From Escherichia coli (GTDB taxonomy: Bacteria > Pseudomonadota > Gammaproteobacteria > Enterobacterales > Enterobacteriaceae), in NCBI RefSeq assembly GCF_003334315.1, contig NZ_QOWR01000075.1: a stretch of DNA of 15,366 bases; one strand, 5' to 3'. Position 1 is the first letter of the stretch; the number at the start of each line of letters is the position of its first letter. Below, one piece after another: positions 1-5,356 of the stretch. Made by a program: the position numbers and the translations under genes. Under the pieces are notes generated by a model. It saw nothing but the letters and a program-made list of their open reading frames with translations. It did not search any database and had not been told where the DNA came from.

Positions 1-105
1 ATTATATCGAATGTGATTACAATCGGTGGCGGCGGCACAGTTGGTGTGGCGGCCTCAGTCCGGAACAATTTGAAAACAAGAACCTCGCTTAGGCCTGTGT
101 CCATA

Positions 106-483
106 TTACGTGGGTAGGATCAGATCAGGAACAGCTTTAACAGTAGCTTCTTGTTGTGTCTTGGCTTCTTGTCTAGCTTCTTCTTGTGGAATATCTACCA
201 CTTGATAGACATTAGAACTTCCTGGTCGTGCATCTTTTATAATTAACCCCATTTCGAGCAATTTCTTAACCCTTTCCTCTGCTGCTCTTGGTGTTATGCC
301 AAAAACATCGCCTATCTTAGCGTAAGAGGGAAATGCACGATCAAACCCTTTCAGATAGCAGTAAAGATTTTTAGCACTATCTGTAAATTTATGCCCGTTT
401 ACTTGGCTTATTTTTAGAATCCACATAGGAACTTTTACAAATTGTTCTTCATTAATCATTAAAAATCTCCTTGATGTAATCAC
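106..483 (-). CDS. HTH_36-like winged-helix DNA-binding protein, 125 aa (putative replication-initiator-like or regulatory protein of the element)
   Basis: ORF MITSRRFLMINEEQFVKVPMWILK...; the central segment SAKNLYCYLKGFDRAFPSYAKIGDVFGITPRAAEERVKKLLEMGLI has the pattern I associate with the HTH_36 family found in phage/plasmid Rep-like proteins. Strong RBS: the minus strand reads AAGGAGA about 7 nt before the ATG. Last gene of a tightly packed three-gene operon. Confidence 0.55.
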   Translation of the reverse strand: MITSRRFLMINEEQFVKVPMWILKISQVNGHKFTDSAKNLYCYLKGFDRAFPSYAKIGDVFGITPRAAEERVKKLLEMGLIIKDARPGSSNVYQVVDIPQEEARQEAKTQQEATVKAVPDLILPT

Positions 484-512
484 GCTCTATGGCGCTACTA
501 TGGTGATAAAAA

Positions 513-683
513 TCACTTGCTTTTATTTGAGAGTGTTTCAGCCTCTCTTTTCAACATATCAAGAATGTAATCTGTGACAGTGATACGTCTACTTCTGGCT
601 TCTTTAAATAACACCTGAAATACTTCATCAGGAATATGAAAGCAAGTGCGTGGTTGTCTTTTCTTTTCTGTAGTTTCGCTCAT
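513..683 (-). CDS. Small ribbon-helix-helix-like (CopG/Arc-type) protein, 56 aa; absent from the supplied ORF track (below length cutoff)
   Basis: Hand translation of the minus strand: MSETTEKKRQPRTCFHIPDEVFQVLFKEARSRRITVTDYILDMLKREAETLSNKSK, stop TGA (complement at 513-515). The pattern basic N-terminus, beta-strand (TCFHIPDEV), helix (FQVLFKEARSRR), helix (ITVTDYILDMLK) is RHH-like. Strong RBS AAGGAG 6 nt upstream; 19-nt gap to the upstream gene and 29-nt gap to the downstream gene. Confidence 0.35.
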   Translation of the reverse strand: MSETTEKKRQPRTCFHIPDEVFQVLFKEARSRRITVTDYILDMLKREAETLSNKSK

Positions 684-702
684 AGTTTTCTCCTTCTATT
701 CT

Positions 703-891
703 TTACTCTGTTTCAGATTCTTTTTCATTTTTTCTTAATTCATCAATAATCTTGAGTGCTTCATTGAAGCAAGCTGCTCGCTCTGGATAACCTCGACTCC
801 TTGCCATATTACGATTCATTACTATTTGGTGGCGTGTAAGCTCACCTTTTTTAAATGCCGCGACAACGTGTTCCGATGTGAACCATTTCAT
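703..891 (-). CDS. Hypothetical small protein, 62 aa; first gene of the three-gene operon
   Basis: ORF MKWFTSEHVVAAFKKGELTRHQIVMNRNMARSRGYPERAACFNEALKIIDELRKNEKESETE with a strong RBS (minus strand TAAGGAGTTTTTT then ATG). I do not recognise a family. Confidence 0.4.
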   Translation of the reverse strand: MKWFTSEHVVAAFKKGELTRHQIVMNRNMARSRGYPERAACFNEALKIIDELRKNEKESETE

Positions 892-1122
892 AAAAAACTC
901 CTTATTCAGTTAAAAGAAAAACACCTTGCAAGCCTGACGGCTTCAAAGTGCATTGATTTTGATTATTTAGAGAAGAATGTTTTTCTGTCCCTCTAATACC
1001 TATTATTACATATAAAGAAACATTTGTCAATACCTTTTCACAAAAAATCTGATCTTTTTCATGTACTTACATTTTTTCTTAGCAATTCGTGCTCTTCTGT
1101 GTAGTGCTATTCTTCCTTATTG

Positions 1123-1145
1123 TCTAAAACGCTCTAAAACGCGTT
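1123..1145. repeat. Tandem 10-bp direct repeat tctaaaacgc x2 running into the palindrome AACGCGTT
   Basis: Seen directly: tctaaaacgc at 1123-1132 and 1133-1142, followed by a degenerate third unit (gttctaacga). Lies in the non-coding region upstream of the minus-strand operon. Confidence 0.4.
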
Positions 1146-1461
1146 CTAACGAGGTTTTGATAAAAGCAATACATTCCCTTATGTAATGGCTGTTTAGCTC
1201 GCCAGAGGCTTATTTAAGGGGCTTATTTTGTATTTGTTAGGTATATGAAAAGGTGATGGTAGATATAAGATAGAGAGTCACTTTATAAAACGCTCTGTAA
1301 AGCCCTGTAGTGAGTTTATATATGTAGGCAATGCGTTTCCATTCCCTACCCTGCTTAATGCTGTTAGAGAAGCATTTAGACCCCTTATTTTTAATTACCT
1401 AAAGTATCCTCTATACATTCCTGTTATGAAACACCTCTGAATCCTTCATAAAACACATTAT

Positions 1462-1517
1462 GACGCAAAGAACACTTTTCTAAGGTGATTCCCTTCCTGA
1501 ATGCTGTTTCTTGCGTC
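1462..1517. repeat. Imperfect inverted repeat, 13-nt arms (gacgcaaagaaca ... tgtttcttgcgtc), 30-nt spacer
   Basis: Seen directly; 11 of 13 positions are complementary. Possible operator or RNA hairpin. Confidence 0.4.
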
Positions 1518-1560
1518 AAAGAGCTACACAGAGCTTATAAAGCTATTATTAATAATAAAG

Positions 1561-1620
1561 TAGACAAAGTAAGTAAGATAAGTAAGTAAGATAACTAAGA
1601 TAGATAAGATTAATAAGATC
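1561..1620. repeat. Degenerate AT-rich short tandem repeat (aagtaag / ataagat units)
   Basis: Seen directly: aagtaagataagtaagtaagataactaagatagataagattaataagatc. Confidence 0.6.
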
Positions 1621-1630
1621 AGAATTCTCT

Positions 1631-1660
1631 TTCGGTGTCGCCTCTGGCTTTTCCACCGAA
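1631..1660. other. Hairpin-forming inverted repeat ttcggtg-N16-caccgaa
   Basis: Seen directly: 7-bp perfect arms with a T-rich loop (tcgcctctggcttttc), located just before the first 42-bp direct repeat. Confidence 0.35.
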
Positions 1661-1663
1661 AAC

Positions 1664-1828
1664 AATTACACAACTACAGAGAATAACGAGAGTTATTAAA
1701 TGTAGAAAGTGGAATTGTATTGAGGCTTAGTGAAATTACACGAGGAAAGCAGAGTGTAATTGAGCTTTAGCCGCTCTCTCTTCGAGTAATTACACAACTA
1801 CAGAGAATAACAGAGTTATTAAATGTAG
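1664..1828. repeat. Pair of 41/42-bp direct repeats (aattacacaactacagagaataac(g)agagttattaaatgtag) about 124 bp apart
   Basis: Seen directly: copy 1 at 1664-1705, copy 2 at 1788-1828, differing by a single g indel. Each contains the short palindrome aataac...gttatt and is followed by similar sequence (gaaagtggaatt / gagggtaatt). Confidence 0.7.
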
Positions 1829-1917
1829 GAGGGTAATTAAGAGTTAGAGAGAGTTAACACATAAGCAATCAGTATGATTGGTTAGGTGATTACTCTTCTG
1901 CGCACAGCGCAATAGTA

Positions 1918-1960
1918 TTTCTTCGTGGGCGTTACCGCCAACGATAGTTACACGAAGAAA
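1918..1960. other. Strong stem-loop: 10-bp perfect inverted repeat tttcttcgtg / cacgaagaaa enclosing a nested ggcg-ttac-cgcc hairpin, within a locally GC-richer segment (about 1860-2075); candidate structured RNA or protein-binding site
   Basis: Seen directly. The 75-codon minus-strand ORF over this segment has no obvious RBS or protein-like composition, so I favour a structural element over a CDS. Confidence 0.4.
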
Positions 1961-2128
1961 GTAACGCTTTGCTTTCGGTGTGAGCGGAACGGGCCAGCCA
2001 CGAAGCCCAAAGGTAGCGGAGTAAGGCTGCTTGCCAGAGAGTGAAGCTAACGCCGGAAGGCAAAAGATCATATAAATAAATATATAATATTATAATTTAA
2101 TAAGTAATTTAATAAATGATCTAATAGG

Positions 2129-2262
2129 TAACAGAATTCTGTGGGGGTGTCTAACAGTTTTCTGTGGGGGTGTCTAACAGAATTCTGTTAGGGTGGGGTA
2201 ACAGAATTTTGTTAGGGTAAAAATCTCTTTAAAAGTTAAGATTAACAGAATTCTGTGGGGGG
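2129..2262. repeat. Repeat family A: palindrome (t)AACAGAATTCTGT(T) followed by G-runs (gtggggg); direct repeat ctgtgggggtgtctaacag x2
   Basis: Seen directly: copies starting near 2129, 2176, 2199 (degenerate, aattttgtt) and 2243, with a fifth at 2538. ACAGAATTCTGT is a perfect 12-bp palindrome, a likely dimeric DNA-binding-protein site. Confidence 0.7.
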
Positions 2263-2325
2263 TAGCTCACAGTGACCTACCCCCTAGTTCACTATGACCT
2301 ACCCCCCTAGGTCACAGTGACCTAT
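2263..2325. repeat. Iteron cluster 1 (family B): three roughly 21-bp units tag(c/t)tcac(a/t)(g/a)tgacctacccc; the third is the perfect palindrome AGGTCACAGTGACCT
   Basis: Seen directly: 2263-2284, 2285-2307 and 2307-2325; the palindrome is at 2309-2323. Confidence 0.7.
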
Positions 2326-2349
2326 ATAGTATAAAGAATATTATTTATA

Positions 2350-2377
2350 TTATTTAATTATAGTATTTAATTATAGT
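2350..2377. repeat. AT-rich 13-bp tandem repeat (atttaattatagt x2) in a roughly 50-bp A+T tract; candidate DNA-unwinding element
   Basis: Seen directly, lying between iteron families B and C. Iterons next to an AT-rich tract is the classical origin layout. Confidence 0.45.
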
Positions 2378-2385
2378 ATTGGTGG

Positions 2386-2483
2386 AACTCATTTCCTAGG
2401 TAGGTAGGAACTAATTTCCTAAGTAGGTAGGAAACCACTTCCTAGGTTACTTCCTAAATAGATCGGAAATCATTTCCTAGGTG
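2386..2483. repeat. Repeat family C: (a/c)tttcctagg(taggtagga) units at roughly 22-bp spacing (4-5 copies); contains the palindrome CCTAGG
   Basis: Seen directly: tttcctagg at 2392, tttcctaag at 2414, cttcctagg at 2438, cttcctaaa at 2451, tttcctagg at 2473. Confidence 0.6.
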
Positions 2484-2498
2484 TTATTTATACTTATC

Positions 2499-2535
2499 GG
2501 GTATCAGTTTTGATAGGGGTATCAGACTTGATAGG
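2499..2535. repeat. Repeat family D: gggtatcag(tt/ac)ttgatag x2 in tandem, 19-bp period
   Basis: Seen directly at 2499-2516 and 2517/2518-2535. Confidence 0.6.
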
Positions 2536-2556
2536 GGTAACAGAATTCTGTGGGGG

Positions 2557-2618
2557 TAGTTCACTATGACCTACCCCTAGTTCACTGTGAGCTACCCCTA
2601 GTTCACTGTGAGCTACCG
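2557..2618. repeat. Iteron cluster 2 (family B): three head-to-tail 21-bp units tagttcac(t)(a/g)tga(c/g)ctacc(cc)
   Basis: Seen directly: 2557-2577, 2578-2598 and 2599-2618, with exact 21-bp periodicity (two helical turns), as expected for Rep-binding iterons. Confidence 0.75.
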
Positions 2619-2712
2619 TTACATCCAATCATCTGTCGATGTAACATATCGTTACTACCAACTTTCTTACAAAGAGCATTTCAGATAGCTGAATGTAACC
2701 TCTCGTTACATC
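2617..2712. repeat. Palindrome-rich block: gttacatc-N12-gatgtaac, gtaac-atatc-gttac, and cgttacatcc repeated (2617 and 2703)
   Basis: Seen directly. Confidence 0.5.
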
Positions 2713-2729
2713 CATTTGTCACATAGCAC

Positions 2730-3210
2730 TCTGTGTAATGCCTTTCTATGTGTGTGCCATAATCCCCCTATATTCCCTGTGTAAATCATAGAATAATGCT
2801 CTCTATTCCCTGTGTAATTCCCTACTAAAAATCAATGAAAAAGTAGCTTAAAGTTGCAATTCTTACTTTCTTCACTTTTACATCACTTTCGCAAAGCCTT
2901 GTGTAATGCGGCTTACAGAGCACCATCAGAAATTGTTGGCTAAAAATTATTCTGCTTGTTTCTGAACGAGTTTTCTCGTTTGTGCAAATTTTAAAATTTA
3001 TTTTGTTTTTACAGCCTTATTTCGTGTAATGCGTGGCATAGCAAGCCCTTTTCTTGTGTTGTCAAGACATTTGGCAACGTTCAAACATCTGTTTAGAAAT
3101 GCCAAATTGTTGATCTAACAAATAAACCTGTATAAACAGAACACCATTTAATCTATTCCCCTGTGTATCCATTAGGCATACCAAATGAATACAGCTAAAT
3201 CGTGTAATAT
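2730..3210. repeat. Dispersed motif (c)tgtgtaat(g) recurring about 7 times, including the direct repeat tattccctgtgtaa x2 (2770-2818)
   Basis: Seen directly near 2733, 2779, 2811, 2901, 3026, 3161 (variant tgtgtatcc) and 3203. The region is non-coding and leads up to the recombinase gene. Confidence 0.45.
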
Positions 3211-3262
3211 TCCGTACCCATAAGGCTTGAAACAGACCAAATGAATACGGTATACTCATTTG
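3169..3262. promoter_or_regulatory. Putative res/hix-like recombinase binding region: duplicated motif cat(t/a)aggc..accaaatgaatac(a/g)g plus the palindrome caaatga-N11-tcatttg
   Basis: Seen directly: copy 1 at 3169-3194, copy 2 at 3217-3250, palindrome at 3238-3262 with the palindromic core gtatac. The location immediately 5' of a resolvase-family gene is where res sites sit in Tn3-family and plasmid resolution systems. Confidence 0.4.
3227..3256 (+). promoter_or_regulatory. Putative sigma70 promoter of the recombinase gene (-35 TTGAAA, 18-bp spacer, -10 TATACT)
   Basis: -35 at 3227-3232, -10 at 3251-3256, about 45 nt upstream of the ATG at 3302. The -10 lies inside the palindrome, which would suggest autoregulation. 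Sequence-pattern inference only. Confidence 0.35.
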
Positions 3263-3301
3263 CATTTAAGTAGTGCCAAATCGACACATTAAGAGGATTT
3301 T

Positions 3302-3841
3302 ATGAGCAATATCGGTTATAAGCGTGTGAGCACTGTAGATCAGAACACTGATCGCCAGCTTGCAGGAGTAACTCTCGATAAAGTCTTTGAAGATAAGCTG
3401 TCTGGTAAAGACACTAACCGCCCAGGCTTACAAGCGTGTTTAGCCTATCTGAGAGAAGGCGACACCTTACACGTGCACTCTCTCGACCGTTTAGGACGTA
3501 ACACCTTAGACATCCTTGCTTTAGTTGAACAACTTAATAATCGAGGTGTAATTGTTCGATTTCACAAAGAAGGAATCATTGCAGACATTACAAGCGCGAT
3601 GGGAAAGATGATGCTTACGATGTTGTCGGCAGTTGCAACGTGTGAACGTGAACTGATGTTAGAACGTAAACGAGAAGCGCAAGCCGTCAATCCTACAAAA
3701 CGTGGTAATGGAAAAGCAGTGGATCGAGAAGGTATAAAGAAAGCCCTTTCTGATGGCCTGTCAGTGCGTAAAACCGCCGAGAGCTTTAATGTTGCTCCTT
3801 CAACGGTGCAACGTATCAAGAAGGAAGAAGAGGAGGCGTAA
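3302..3841 (+). CDS. Small serine recombinase (resolvase/invertase family), 179 aa
   Basis: N-terminal GYKRVSTVDQ is the catalytic-serine motif of serine recombinases. Conserved blocks FEDKLSG, RPGL, LDRLGR and SAVATCERELMLER resemble the Tn3 TnpR, Gin and Hin layout. A C-terminal HTH is present (LSVRKTAESFNVAPSTVQRIKK). RBS AAGAGGA lies 5 nt upstream. Not identical to the Pin or Gin sequences I recall. Confidence 0.85.
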   Translation: MSNIGYKRVSTVDQNTDRQLAGVTLDKVFEDKLSGKDTNRPGLQACLAYLREGDTLHVHSLDRLGRNTLDILALVEQLNNRGVIVRFHKEGIIADITSAMGKMMLTMLSAVATCERELMLERKREAQAVNPTKRGNGKAVDREGIKKALSDGLSVRKTAESFNVAPSTVQRIKKEEEEA

Positions 3842-3850
3842 TGCCTCCTT
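3829..3850 (+). terminator. Possible hairpin at the recombinase stop (ggaggcg-taa-tgcctcc)
   Basis: 6-bp GC stem spanning the stop codon, followed by ttgatattt. Weak T-tract, so low confidence. Confidence 0.25.
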
Positions 3851-4077
3851 GATATTTGAGAATTGTCGCTGCGTGGACCTGACGGCGCTGATCTTCTCGT
3901 TAAGCGATGATCACGTATGCGCCGATTTCAGAGAAAAAGACAGTAACTGAACTCACTATGAAGGCTAAACGTATCTTTACACTTGATGAAAACGTTCAAA
4001 AAACAACCTAACCCCAAAATTCAACAAATTGCAACACATTGTTTTTAAAAGAAAATTAAATCTACATCAAATATTGG

Positions 4078-4106
4078 TTGACGTAGATTGAGGTGAATAG
4101 TAGACT
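4078..4106 (+). promoter_or_regulatory. Putative promoter for the small hydrophobic ORF (-35 TTGACG, 17-bp spacer, -10 TAGACT)
   Basis: Pattern match only; would give a leader of about 70 nt before the ATG at 4183. Confidence 0.25.
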
Positions 4107-4182
4107 ATTAGGGTAAATTACCACCCTTGTAACATCATTTAATGCATGTTCTAATCTTCCTATCGTAAAACCGGAGGAAGTT

Positions 4183-4341
4183 ATGCATTTACTTTCAAAA
4201 CATCTTCACACTATTCACTTTCTCGTTATTGATGTATTCGTTGTGGCTATTAGTTACCGCATTTGCATCGCTTCCAGTGAAGAGATGGACGCTGTTGCAA
4301 TTATTGCTCAAGCAATGGCGATATTAACTAAACGACTTTAA
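4183..4341 (+). CDS. Small hydrophobic protein, 52 aa (candidate small membrane protein or toxin-like peptide); absent from the ORF track
   Basis: Hand translation: MHLLSKHLHTIHFLVIDVFVVAISYRICIASSEEMDAVAIIAQAMAILTKRL, stop TAA at 4339-4341. Strong RBS GGAGGAAG 5-6 nt upstream. A roughly 20-residue hydrophobic stretch is consistent with one transmembrane helix. Confidence 0.35.
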   Translation: MHLLSKHLHTIHFLVIDVFVVAISYRICIASSEEMDAVAIIAQAMAILTKRL

Positions 4342-4354
4342 TAATTTCACTATC

Positions 4355-4398
4355 AGGCGCATAAACACATCTTTGATCGCTGGATGTGTTATGCGCCT
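4355..4398. terminator. Long near-perfect inverted repeat (aggcgcataaacacatc - N11 - gatgtgttatgcgcct) between the two convergent small ORFs; candidate bidirectional terminator or operator
   Basis: Seen directly: arms at 4355-4371 and 4383-4398, 16 of 17 positions paired with one bulged A. The position between convergent ORFs fits a terminator, though flanking T-tracts are weak. Confidence 0.45.
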
Positions 4399-4407
4399 AC
4401 TGGTGAT

Positions 4408-4560
4408 TCAATCCTTAAGCCATTTCAACTCACTAAGGAGTTTTCTTTCTTCGTTCTCTCGTTGCTTTCGCTCTAGCCAGGCTTTTCCCTCTGGCGTAGA
4501 CAGGAACTTACGAGCGTGAATCTTGCGGTTATTACGTTTTATAGCTGCAATGTTTTTCAT
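4408..4560 (-). CDS. Small basic protein, 50 aa, hypothetical; absent from the ORF track
   Basis: Hand translation of the minus strand: MKNIAAIKRNNRKIHARKFLSTPEGKAWLERKQRENEERKLLSELKWLKD, stop TGA (complement at 4408-4410). A possible RBS (AGAGG) lies upstream. I do not recognise a family. Confidence 0.3.
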   Translation of the reverse strand: MKNIAAIKRNNRKIHARKFLSTPEGKAWLERKQRENEERKLLSELKWLKD

Positions 4561-5166
4561 CGTGTTGCCTCTGTATTCATATGAAAATTAACAAGTTACA
4601 TACTACACAGGGAGACTACGCATAAAACACAATACAAGTAAAGATACATTTTCAAGACAATAGGAGCCATAAAGCGCCTTTGATGGTTATACCAAAAAAT
4701 AAGCGCCGTAGGCGTATCCACTAAAAAGGGCTTTTTCACAAAAGCTATGAAGTCTTAGCAGTTCTTCTCTTATCAGGCACCCGTTGTACTCCGGTGGACG
4801 AAACCGTGCTAGAGCTTGATTCTTTCCCGATCAAGTTAGGTTTTGAAGAGGTGGGCTTTAATCCACTATTGCACTTAAAACTCTTCCCATCATTTAGCCT
4901 GTTTATCCTCTGCAACGTCTCACGACGTGTAGCATCATTGGACACCGCGCCAGGTGTGGAACATCTTGCTAAGAGTTTTGGTAGAAGGTTTAGAGACGGT
5001 GGCACGTCTTCCAGCTTCAAAGGAACTTGTTACGAGGTTGAGCCTGGGAACTACTCGCCCATACGTGTTACACTACCAAAGCCCATAACAACGTATAGGC
5101 GTTTGTAAGTGATAACAGAAGATACAATTTCTTAGAGAAGTTAAGCTAAGTTATTGATTTTCTTGA

Positions 5167-5242
5167 TGGTGCCGATAATAGGAGTCGAACCTACGACCTT
5201 CGCATTACGAATGCGCTGCTCTACCAACTGAGCTATATCGGC
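5167..5242 (-). tRNA. thrW: tRNA-Thr (anticodon CGU), thrW-like
   Basis: The minus strand reads GCCGATATAGCTCAGTTGGTAGAGCAGCGCATTCGTAATGCGAAGGTCGTAGGTTCGACTCCTATTATCGGCACCA: cloverleaf features, anticodon loop TTCGTAA, encoded CCA. It sits downstream of proA as in E. coli. Confidence 0.95.
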
Positions 5243-5356
5243 CCTGAAAGGACATGTTCACGAACGTGAATCACGGTGGACAAGGTTAAAACTAACCGGG
5301 CGATGCGTCAATGGCCTTGTGAATCAAATGGCTACTTTTGCATCACCCGGTTTTAT

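Follow-up and report, generated by a model that had tools for sequence, protein, structure and literature searches.

The window analysed here is a stretch of 15,366 nucleotides of an Escherichia coli contig (NZ_QOWR01000075.1, assembly GCF_003334315.1), in which the end of an element integrated at the tRNA-Thr gene thrW carries a small serine recombinase gene of the resolvase type, directly preceded by a 123-bp array of putative recombinase-binding sites that we call res. The gene occupies positions 3302-3841 on the + strand and encodes 179 amino acids; its open reading frame (ORF) begins MSNIGYKRVSTVDQ, and a ribosome-binding site (AAGAGG) lies at 3290-3295. The window is otherwise a chromosome of the E. 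coli type (proA, proB, phoE, crl, frsA, gpt and pepD, with an IS1 at the right end), everything to the left of thrW being the end of the integrated element.

Pfam assigns residues 4-128 of the recombinase to the Resolvase catalytic domain (1.3e-33) and residues 141-175 to the C-terminal helix-turn-helix (HTH) domains HTH_38, HTH_23 and HTH_7. The gamma-delta resolvase structure aligns with it over the full length, up to gamma-delta residue 181 (4e-29), and Tn3 resolvase scores similarly (4.5e-28); Gin invertase structures come near these resolvase scores (4e-26), and Sin is much more distant (4e-17). Overall similarity to gamma-delta resolvase is moderate, with a five-residue deletion after Q19. 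The 15 residues reported as conserved, in Tn3 numbering (Y6, R8, S10, Q14, Q19, D36, S39, R45, D59, D67, R68, R71, E118, R119 and R125; PMC2794168), are all identical in the recombinase (Y6, R8, S10, Q14, Q19, D31, S34, R40, D54, D62, R63, R66, E115, R116 and R122), where the C-terminal end of the catalytic residue set shows the motif pairs E115-R116 and E121-R122. The catalytic serine with these other conserved residues, the C-terminal HTH and the length, in a class of about 180-200 amino acids, are the marks of small serine recombinases. As read from its sequence, the protein is a member of the resolvase/invertase group of these enzymes, neither a large serine integrase nor an IS607-type enzyme with an N-terminal HTH, and it is a competent-looking resolvase as regards catalysis. 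The original prediction, which had already described a 179-residue small serine recombinase with a C-terminal HTH, distinct from the large integrases, is borne out by the Pfam and structure matches, and the catalytic serine that it pointed out is S10. In the related genomes that were examined, the annotation shows an intact gene, and the ratio of nonsynonymous to synonymous substitution (dN/dS) between the alleles of the window and of the related locus L001 is 0.04, at a dS of 0.26, over the whole gene including the catalytic domain, which indicates strong purifying selection.

Upstream of the gene, the 13-mer ACCAAATGAATAC occurs exactly at 3180-3192 and again at 3236-3248, and an exact 13-nucleotide direct repeat within 100 bp was reached in none of 1000 dinucleotide shuffles of 3000-3301. 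Positions 3238-3262 form the 25-bp imperfect palindrome caaatga-N11-tcatttg (with 10-nucleotide arms, 9/10 complementary); an equally good inverted repeat appeared in 138 of 1000 shuffles, so that the palindrome alone is not beyond chance, and homologues with saturated synonymous sites keep it almost unchanged. Scanning 3150-3301 with the 13-mer returned five matches with at most four mismatches, for 0.4-0.5 expected, and a sixth with five mismatches. The six matches alternate in strand (3165, -; 3180, +; 3214, -; 3236, +; 3252, -; 3275, +), and the res-like site that they make up (3165-3287, 123 bp) comprises six 13-bp half-sites with the consensus GCCWAATGARTAC, separated in order by 2, 21, 9, 3 and 10 bp and paired into three dyads (28, 35 and 36 bp), the linkers being 21 bp between sites I and II and 3 bp between sites II and III.

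Site I (3165-3192), the candidate crossover site, reads GTATCCATTAGGC-AT-ACCAAATGAATAC (13+2+13 = 28 bp), with the central AT at 3178-3179; it is the best dyad of that form in the 200 bp upstream of the gene, its halves being 10/13 complementary. Site II (3214-3248, 35 bp), a putative accessory site, reads GTACCCATAAGGC-9 bp-ACCAAATGAATAC, and both of its halves match the 13-mer on the expected strands. Site III (3252-3287, 36 bp), a putative accessory site and operator, reads ATACTCATTTGCA-10 bp-GCCAAATCGACAC, each half lying within four mismatches of the motif. A candidate crossover dyad with predicted accessory dimer-binding dyads beside the gene, the sequence layout of a res, is what is found here. 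In this predicted layout, sites I and II each end on the right in one of the two exact repeats, the palindrome arises where the right half of site II meets the left half of site III back to back across the 3-bp linker, and crossover would likely occur at the previously unreported 28-bp dyad of site I, at the AT of 3178-3179.

The case for a three-dyad site rests on the register kept across homologues, the dyad statistics of any single sequence being too weak alone. We aligned the regions upstream of the gene in the window, in L001, in two metagenomic homologues of 82-83% protein identity (L013 and L014) and in a homologue of 69% identity (L050). The 123-bp res regions align without gaps and with identical spacers, and identity to the window is 85%, 81% and 69% in the half-sites versus 47-49% in the spacers (Fisher 1e-5, 1e-4 and 0.02). 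Among 18 half-sites compared, T7 and A12 are invariant (18/18) and C3 is present in 17. In the two metagenomic homologues the synonymous sites are saturated relative to the window (pS 0.81-0.84), yet the upstream blocks CATTAGGCATACCA, AAGGCTTG, CAAATGAA.AC..TA.ACTCATTTGCAT and TGCCAAATCG..ACA are unchanged in both; the first of them, the site I core, is invariant, the putative crossover site being the best-conserved block. Their blastn homology to the window has its left limit at 3164, where site I begins, and nothing matches further left. The positions of the site II halves and their 9-bp spacer are equal in L013, L014 and L050; the left half of site III is identical in the window, L013 and L050, with its register and 10-bp spacer kept. 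In L050, whose contigs (about 4.4 kb) are circular permutations of one another in different samples, the six half-sites lie at the same offsets from the ATG, and the centre of the site I dyad falls at -123.5 as in the window. The top 13+2+13 dyad lies at -125.5 in L013, at -115.5 in L004 (the allele of O104:H4) and at -122.5 in L010 (a 2-kb plasmid), with individually weak scores.

The res-like site overlaps a sigma-70-like promoter on the + strand (3227-3256), TTGAAA (3227-3232) and TATACT (3251-3256) separated by 18 nucleotides, with 10 of 12 consensus matches. Because a promoter scan found promoter-like sites no more often than in shuffles, this promoter is plausible rather than demonstrated; the -35 TTG and the -10 TAwACT are kept in L013, L014 and L050. 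The -35 falls inside the spacer of site II and the -10 at the junction of sites II and III, the promoter spacer and the -10 being covered by the right half of site II and the left half of site III. As the part of the promoter from the -35/-10 spacer on is overlain by sites II and III, the recombinase, once bound, should keep the transcription of its own gene repressed, and we infer from this arrangement that the protein probably binds the site and regulates itself.

As to the original prediction, the palindrome and the TATACT are where it saw them, and both copies of its motif are present, the first lying one base to the left of the 3181-3193 that it gave. Its layout of a res or hix site next to an autoregulated gene holds insofar as a res-like site overlaps the promoter of the gene, and fails as regards hix, the site being multi-dyad and having no partner. 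Rather than a duplicated site with a single palindromic operator, the motifs are four of the six half-sites of a three-dyad res.

Binding sites that overlap the promoter would also be expected of a protein that acts only as a DNA-binding repressor, or of a decaying remnant devoid of recombination activity, and the element of the window has indeed already been damaged by an IS3. The catalytic residues are nevertheless all intact, the low dN/dS extends to the catalytic domain, and the best-conserved block upstream is the putative crossover site, which repression does not need. We therefore consider this explanation very improbable.

The recombinase could alternatively be a DNA invertase, flipping a segment between two inverted hix-like sites to switch the expression of something in the element. 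Its best match among PHROG families (PHROG_125) is labelled 'DNA invertase', the Gin structures score almost as well as the resolvases, and the palindrome resembles a single dyad site. Such an enzyme would need an inverted partner site. Over the window and 35 kb of L001, no second copy of the 13-mer with at most two mismatches was found on either strand within the element, nor was a second caaatga...tcatttg site in either orientation in the same sequences; the site I core, searched there on both strands with up to three mismatches, gave chance-level matches only, none of them within the element. In blastn comparisons of the window with the related loci L001-L003, every match of 100 bp or more is collinear, as is each of the 13 full-length matches listed for region 2950-3900 among 156 genomes, which align as single pieces, none of those listed starting at site I. 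Furthermore, six half-sites over 123 bp form a layout of the resolvase type, unlike a single 26-bp hix, and the central AT is symmetric. Inversion thus appears highly unlikely, and of the two functions between which the original prediction had hesitated, multimer resolution is better supported than the control of an invertible segment, for which the partner site is missing and the related loci are collinear.

The module is an optional part of its element. A search of 5,426 complete E. coli genomes with region 2950-3900 gave matches in 492, which in 156 of them extend over 80% or more of the region; the remaining matching genomes share only 2950-3174 or only the 3' end of the gene. About 3% of complete E. 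coli genomes carry the recombinase subfamily of the window, which is found on very small plasmids as well. Positions 3175-4409, that is res, the recombinase gene and 570 bp downstream, form a variable slot, which in related elements holds unrelated DNA instead, about 810 bp long and unannotated. In blastn comparisons with two such elements (L002 and L003), the match to the window breaks at 3171-3174, and in L002 it resumes at 4410. The alternative filling (L002 9227-10036; L003 9224-10040) has no annotated gene, one unannotated ORF of 127 codons on the opposite strand and, by tblastn, no remnant of the recombinase; it is common to elements at two different tRNA genes, the group that matches only 2950-3174 and lacks the recombinase including for example O26:H11 and, at tRNA-Gly, strain Ecol_224. 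PADLOC defence models matched neither the recombinase, nor its neighbours, nor the ORFs of this alternative cassette. The second group, matching only at the 3' end of the gene and exemplified by O104:H4 (L004), carries at the same position an allele whose protein is 62-65% identical.

Three other roles or origins for the module were considered and set aside. First, the slot borders do not look like crossover products of site I, the left break falling 4-7 bp to the left of the centre of site I, within its left half, and no res-like sequence being present at the right border (4409/4410). Second, the recombinase is not the integrase of the element: elements that lack it are integrated at thrW and at tRNA-Gly, and a tyrosine integrase is present in every element, so that the serine recombinase must do something other than integration; the attachment (att) core, consisting of 20 bp of the tRNA 3' end, is unrelated to the res half-site. 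Third, it is not the TnpR of a Tn3-family transposon, as neither an ORF for a DDE transposase (tnpA) nor the 38-bp terminal inverted repeats of that family occur in the island part of the window or in the 12-13 kb element.

The same polymorphism raises the possibility that res and recombinase are a passenger, a self-contained module captured from a small plasmid and taking no part in the life cycle of the element. Its presence or absence, its allelic variation and its sharp borders would fit such a capture, as would the unrelated DNA standing in its place in L002 and L003 and the different cargo found downstream of the recombinase in L013 and L014. The closest plasmid homologues are on plasmids of 2-6 kb: a 1,985-bp plasmid record (L010, NZ_CP116175.1) has a 56% identical homologue as its single annotated gene, the remaining 1.4 kb or so being repeat-rich and non-coding, and the recombinase is matched equally well by two other records, of about 2 kb each, in E. 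coli and Salmonella (NZ_AP027492.1 and NZ_CP130129.1). In Enterobacter and Citrobacter, too, homologues are found at the glyU hot spot, within remnants of unrelated islands. On the other side, the position and orientation of the gene, on the far side of the non-coding region and pointing away from the structural operon, are kept in the 62-65% identical L004 and in the 60% identical relatives L047 and L048; the module always adjoins the presumed origin; and the gene is under strong purifying selection. We regard capture as a passenger as rather unlikely, though less so than a role limited to repression.

How a 2-kb replicon with the recombinase as its only gene replicates is not obvious. The Enterobacter cloacae and Citrobacter gillenii homologues (L007 10001-10537 and L008 10001-10555; 54-76% identical) lie in islands beside actS, in the glyU hot spot also used by the E. 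coli element, where they adjoin PAAR, acetyltransferase, Abi_alpha and invasin genes, with no capsid or tail genes nearby; this suggests that they are remnants of, or have been exchanged with, other islands.

The nature of the element bears directly on the function of the module. The tRNA search placed thrW (anticodon CGT) at 5167-5242 on the - strand, and its 3' end carries the 20-bp att core ATGGTGCCGATAATAGGAGT at 5166-5185. Between thrW and the pao genes of strain C2 there is nothing but the element, with a directly repeated 20-bp copy of the tRNA 3' end at either border. Elements of this kind are 12-13 kb long (L001 7000-19973; L015 4495-18237). The order in related complete genomes is thrW, about 0.6 kb, two tiny ORFs, the recombinase gene, 2.4-3 kb without ORFs, two tiny ORFs and a 217-aa initiator-like protein, followed by several small ORFs, a 342-aa capsid protein, a 609-aa protein, a 237-aa Dit-like protein and, at the far end, the tyrosine integrase. 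The N-terminus of the 217-aa protein matches PHROG replication-initiator families and is like that of an O-like initiator; the 342-aa protein is a capsid protein of the lambda-E type (Pfam Phage_cap_E, 6e-13), the best phage protein in the collection searched being only 24% identical; the 609-aa protein is 'tape measure' in PHROG and has no Pfam match; the 237-aa protein is a Dit-like tail protein (2.6e-29). Neither a portal nor a terminase is among the genes of the element. A relative with a different tyrosine integrase is present at the tRNA-Gly next to actS, and an IncF plasmid carries one integrated copy. We found no description of the thrW element in the searchable literature or in the phage collection, and it looks like an apparently undescribed phage satellite. 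The 'plasmid-like element' of the original prediction accordingly stands as to its replication module, and not as to its form, since no free plasmid was found in PLSDB and the element is tRNA-integrated and satellite-like, with its own tyrosine integrase.

From these data, we propose that the window encodes a competent resolvase with its own 123-bp res upstream, most likely serving the autoregulated resolution of multimers of the excised, replicating element, a reading that we hold with somewhat better than even confidence. The element would enter and leave thrW by means of its own tyrosine integrase, and the O-like initiator and the iteron arrays would replicate the excised circle, giving multimers. 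Recombinase dimers would bind the three dyads and repress the promoter; on a multimer, two directly repeated copies of res would synapse, with strands cut and exchanged at the AT of site I, and the multimers would thereby be returned to monomers. There is one res per element (in the window and in L001), and the natural substrate would therefore be a dimer or a higher multimer of the excised circle. Several lines of evidence speak for such a maintenance role. First, the initiator and iteron arrays adjoin the module, which is always located beside the presumed origin. Second, homologues occur on plasmids of about 2 kb (56% identity) and on the circular sequence of about 4.4 kb that has the same res layout (69% identity). 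Third, the placement of the gene, across some 2 kb of non-coding DNA from the structural genes, is kept in the 60% identical relatives, where the recombinase is followed by this non-coding region and an operon ending in the genes for the tape-measure protein (TMP) and the Dit protein. The position of the crossover and multimer resolution as the role are both what we infer from this arrangement, and as regards the latter the original prediction had offered the better supported of its alternatives; no free form of the element occurs in PLSDB.

The recombinase might instead be linked to transfer, converting concatemers to monomers or to circles after packaging by a helper phage, in the manner of Cre/lox, or fusing the element to another replicon that bears res. 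The lambda-E-type capsid, TMP-like and Dit-like genes, in an element that lacks a portal and a terminase, are in keeping with this possibility, since such a gene content resembles that of a phage satellite; a full-size head would then take up the 12-13 kb genome in the form of multimers. A copy of the element on an IncF plasmid also speaks for it. No helper phage is known, however, and when IMG/VR was scanned for exact matches to the site I core, all that turned up were five copies of the same element and 26 chance matches in unrelated contigs. Moreover, resolvases with accessory sites normally require supercoiled circular substrates (PMC2602789), so that linear concatemers would be poor ones. 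We find a role in transfer improbable, more so than a passenger origin and less so than inversion.

Several observations weigh against multimer resolution and the three-dyad model. An excised, multimer-forming episomal stage of the element is assumed, and PLSDB contains no free plasmid form. About a third of the related E. coli elements carry the allele of the window and some have no recombinase, which makes the module dispensable. The window itself opens with the end of an IS3 (bases 1-122, at 100% identity to an annotated IS3), which cuts the initiator at about residue 110; this copy of the element is thus probably replication-defective, and its recombinase module may be without a substrate. 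On the protein side, the positions of the Tn3 R interface (R2, R32, K54 and E56), as read from the structure alignment, are not conserved. As regards the site, the dyad score of site I was equalled in 93 of 2000 and in 53 of 2000 single-sequence shuffles, a weak significance, and is not significant for L013, L014 and L010; in the alleles of L004 (O104:H4) and L011 the gene-proximal half-sites, read by eye, resemble direct repeats; site III is 36 bp instead of the 25 bp of Tn3; and the pairing of its halves is the least secure part of the model.

The replication region of the element has features of its own. The N-terminal half of the O-like initiator (106-483, - strand), recognised by its PHROG matches, corresponds to residues 1-110 of the 217-aa protein of L001. 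The non-coding region between it and res (900-3160), the presumed origin, holds at least five different iteron-like tandem arrays with periods of 18-23 bp: within 1100-2720, about 1.6 kb without ORFs, arrays with periods of 23, 23, 23, 18 and 21 bp are accompanied by shorter repeats. Each iteron unit has internal dyad symmetry, and the content and length of the arrays vary between related elements; why one small element should have so many distinct iteron families is unexplained. The iteron region had no blastn match in the phage collection, and Rfam, run on 1-5300, matched only the tRNA. In this AT-rich region a G+C-rich island (1850-2075) has a predicted folding energy of -77.6 kcal/mol on the + strand (z = -4.4, 0/200 shuffles; - strand, z = -2.3), and a structured RNA or a signal for single-strand initiation may lie there; no PHROG family matches the 75-aa ORF over it (1844-2071, - strand). 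A second motif, (C)TGTGTAAT(G/T)C, occurs in four to six irregularly spaced copies in the 450 bp upstream of res (2732, 2811, 2900 and 3023, also 3162 and 3201), two of which extend to CTnTATTCCCTGTGTAA.

Downstream of the recombinase gene (4059-4560), a hairpin with 12-bp arms is followed by a promoter-like sequence (TTGACG-17-TAGACT) and by a 52-aa hydrophobic ORF (4183-4341, + strand), which converges on a 50-aa basic ORF (4408-4560, - strand); a GC-rich inverted repeat, seen by inspection, lies between them at about 4357-4398. Related genomes have both ORFs annotated as hypothetical proteins, and no PHROG or PADLOC match was obtained for either.

Compared with known systems, the module most resembles those of Tn3 and gamma-delta, in the two-domain protein, in the res directly upstream with its three predicted dimer-binding dyads and in the sites overlapping the promoter. 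The res of Tn3 measures 114 bp, its sites I, II and III having 28, 34 and 25 bp (PMC2602789), and its I-II linker is 22 bp (bioRxiv 10.1101/2021.12.07.471667). Here, site I likewise has 28 bp with a central AT, the linker has 21 bp and site II 35 bp, whereas the whole res is longer (123 bp), the half-site sequence differs, the R-interface residues are not conserved, and neither a transposase gene nor terminal inverted repeats are found near the recombinase. Serine resolvases that resolve plasmid multimers include ParA, which acts at res in RK2/RP4, Sin of staphylococcal plasmids and beta of pSM19035. The job that we propose is the same, and res lies beside the gene and the origin (for ParA and beta, this likeness is drawn from general knowledge alone), but the host is a tRNA-integrated element and not a plasmid. 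The res of Sin consists of two dimer sites and an HU/IHF site (bioRxiv 10.1101/2021.12.07.471667). The invertases Hin, Gin, Cin and Pin have the same fold and size, and differ from what we found in that no inverted site pair, invertible segment or orientation polymorphism was detected here and a multi-dyad site replaces hix or gix. Among element-borne recombinases that are separate from integration, Cre-lox of phage P1 resolves dimers; Cre is a tyrosine recombinase, not homologous to the one described here, that acts at a single 34-bp site without accessory sites, and it is a functional analogue only.

Resolvase-res pairs are textbook systems, and that of the window follows the Tn3 layout closely; what is added here is a precise site map, with the predicted crossover AT at 3178-3179, six half-sites and an operator over the promoter, for an uncharacterised subfamily. 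As a bolder suggestion, which we consider doubtful at present, res and resolvase would be the maintenance module of an apparently undescribed satellite-like family of 12-13 kb tRNA-integrated elements, with a multi-iteron non-coding region of 2-3 kb, reducing replicated or head-packaged concatemers to monomers, a Cre/lox-like task that would be new for a phage satellite. The more unusual object is the host element with its multi-iteron region, rather than the resolvase-res pair: a compact island at thrW or glyU with capsid and tail genes and an unusually rich iteron region, which may represent a new kind of phage satellite.

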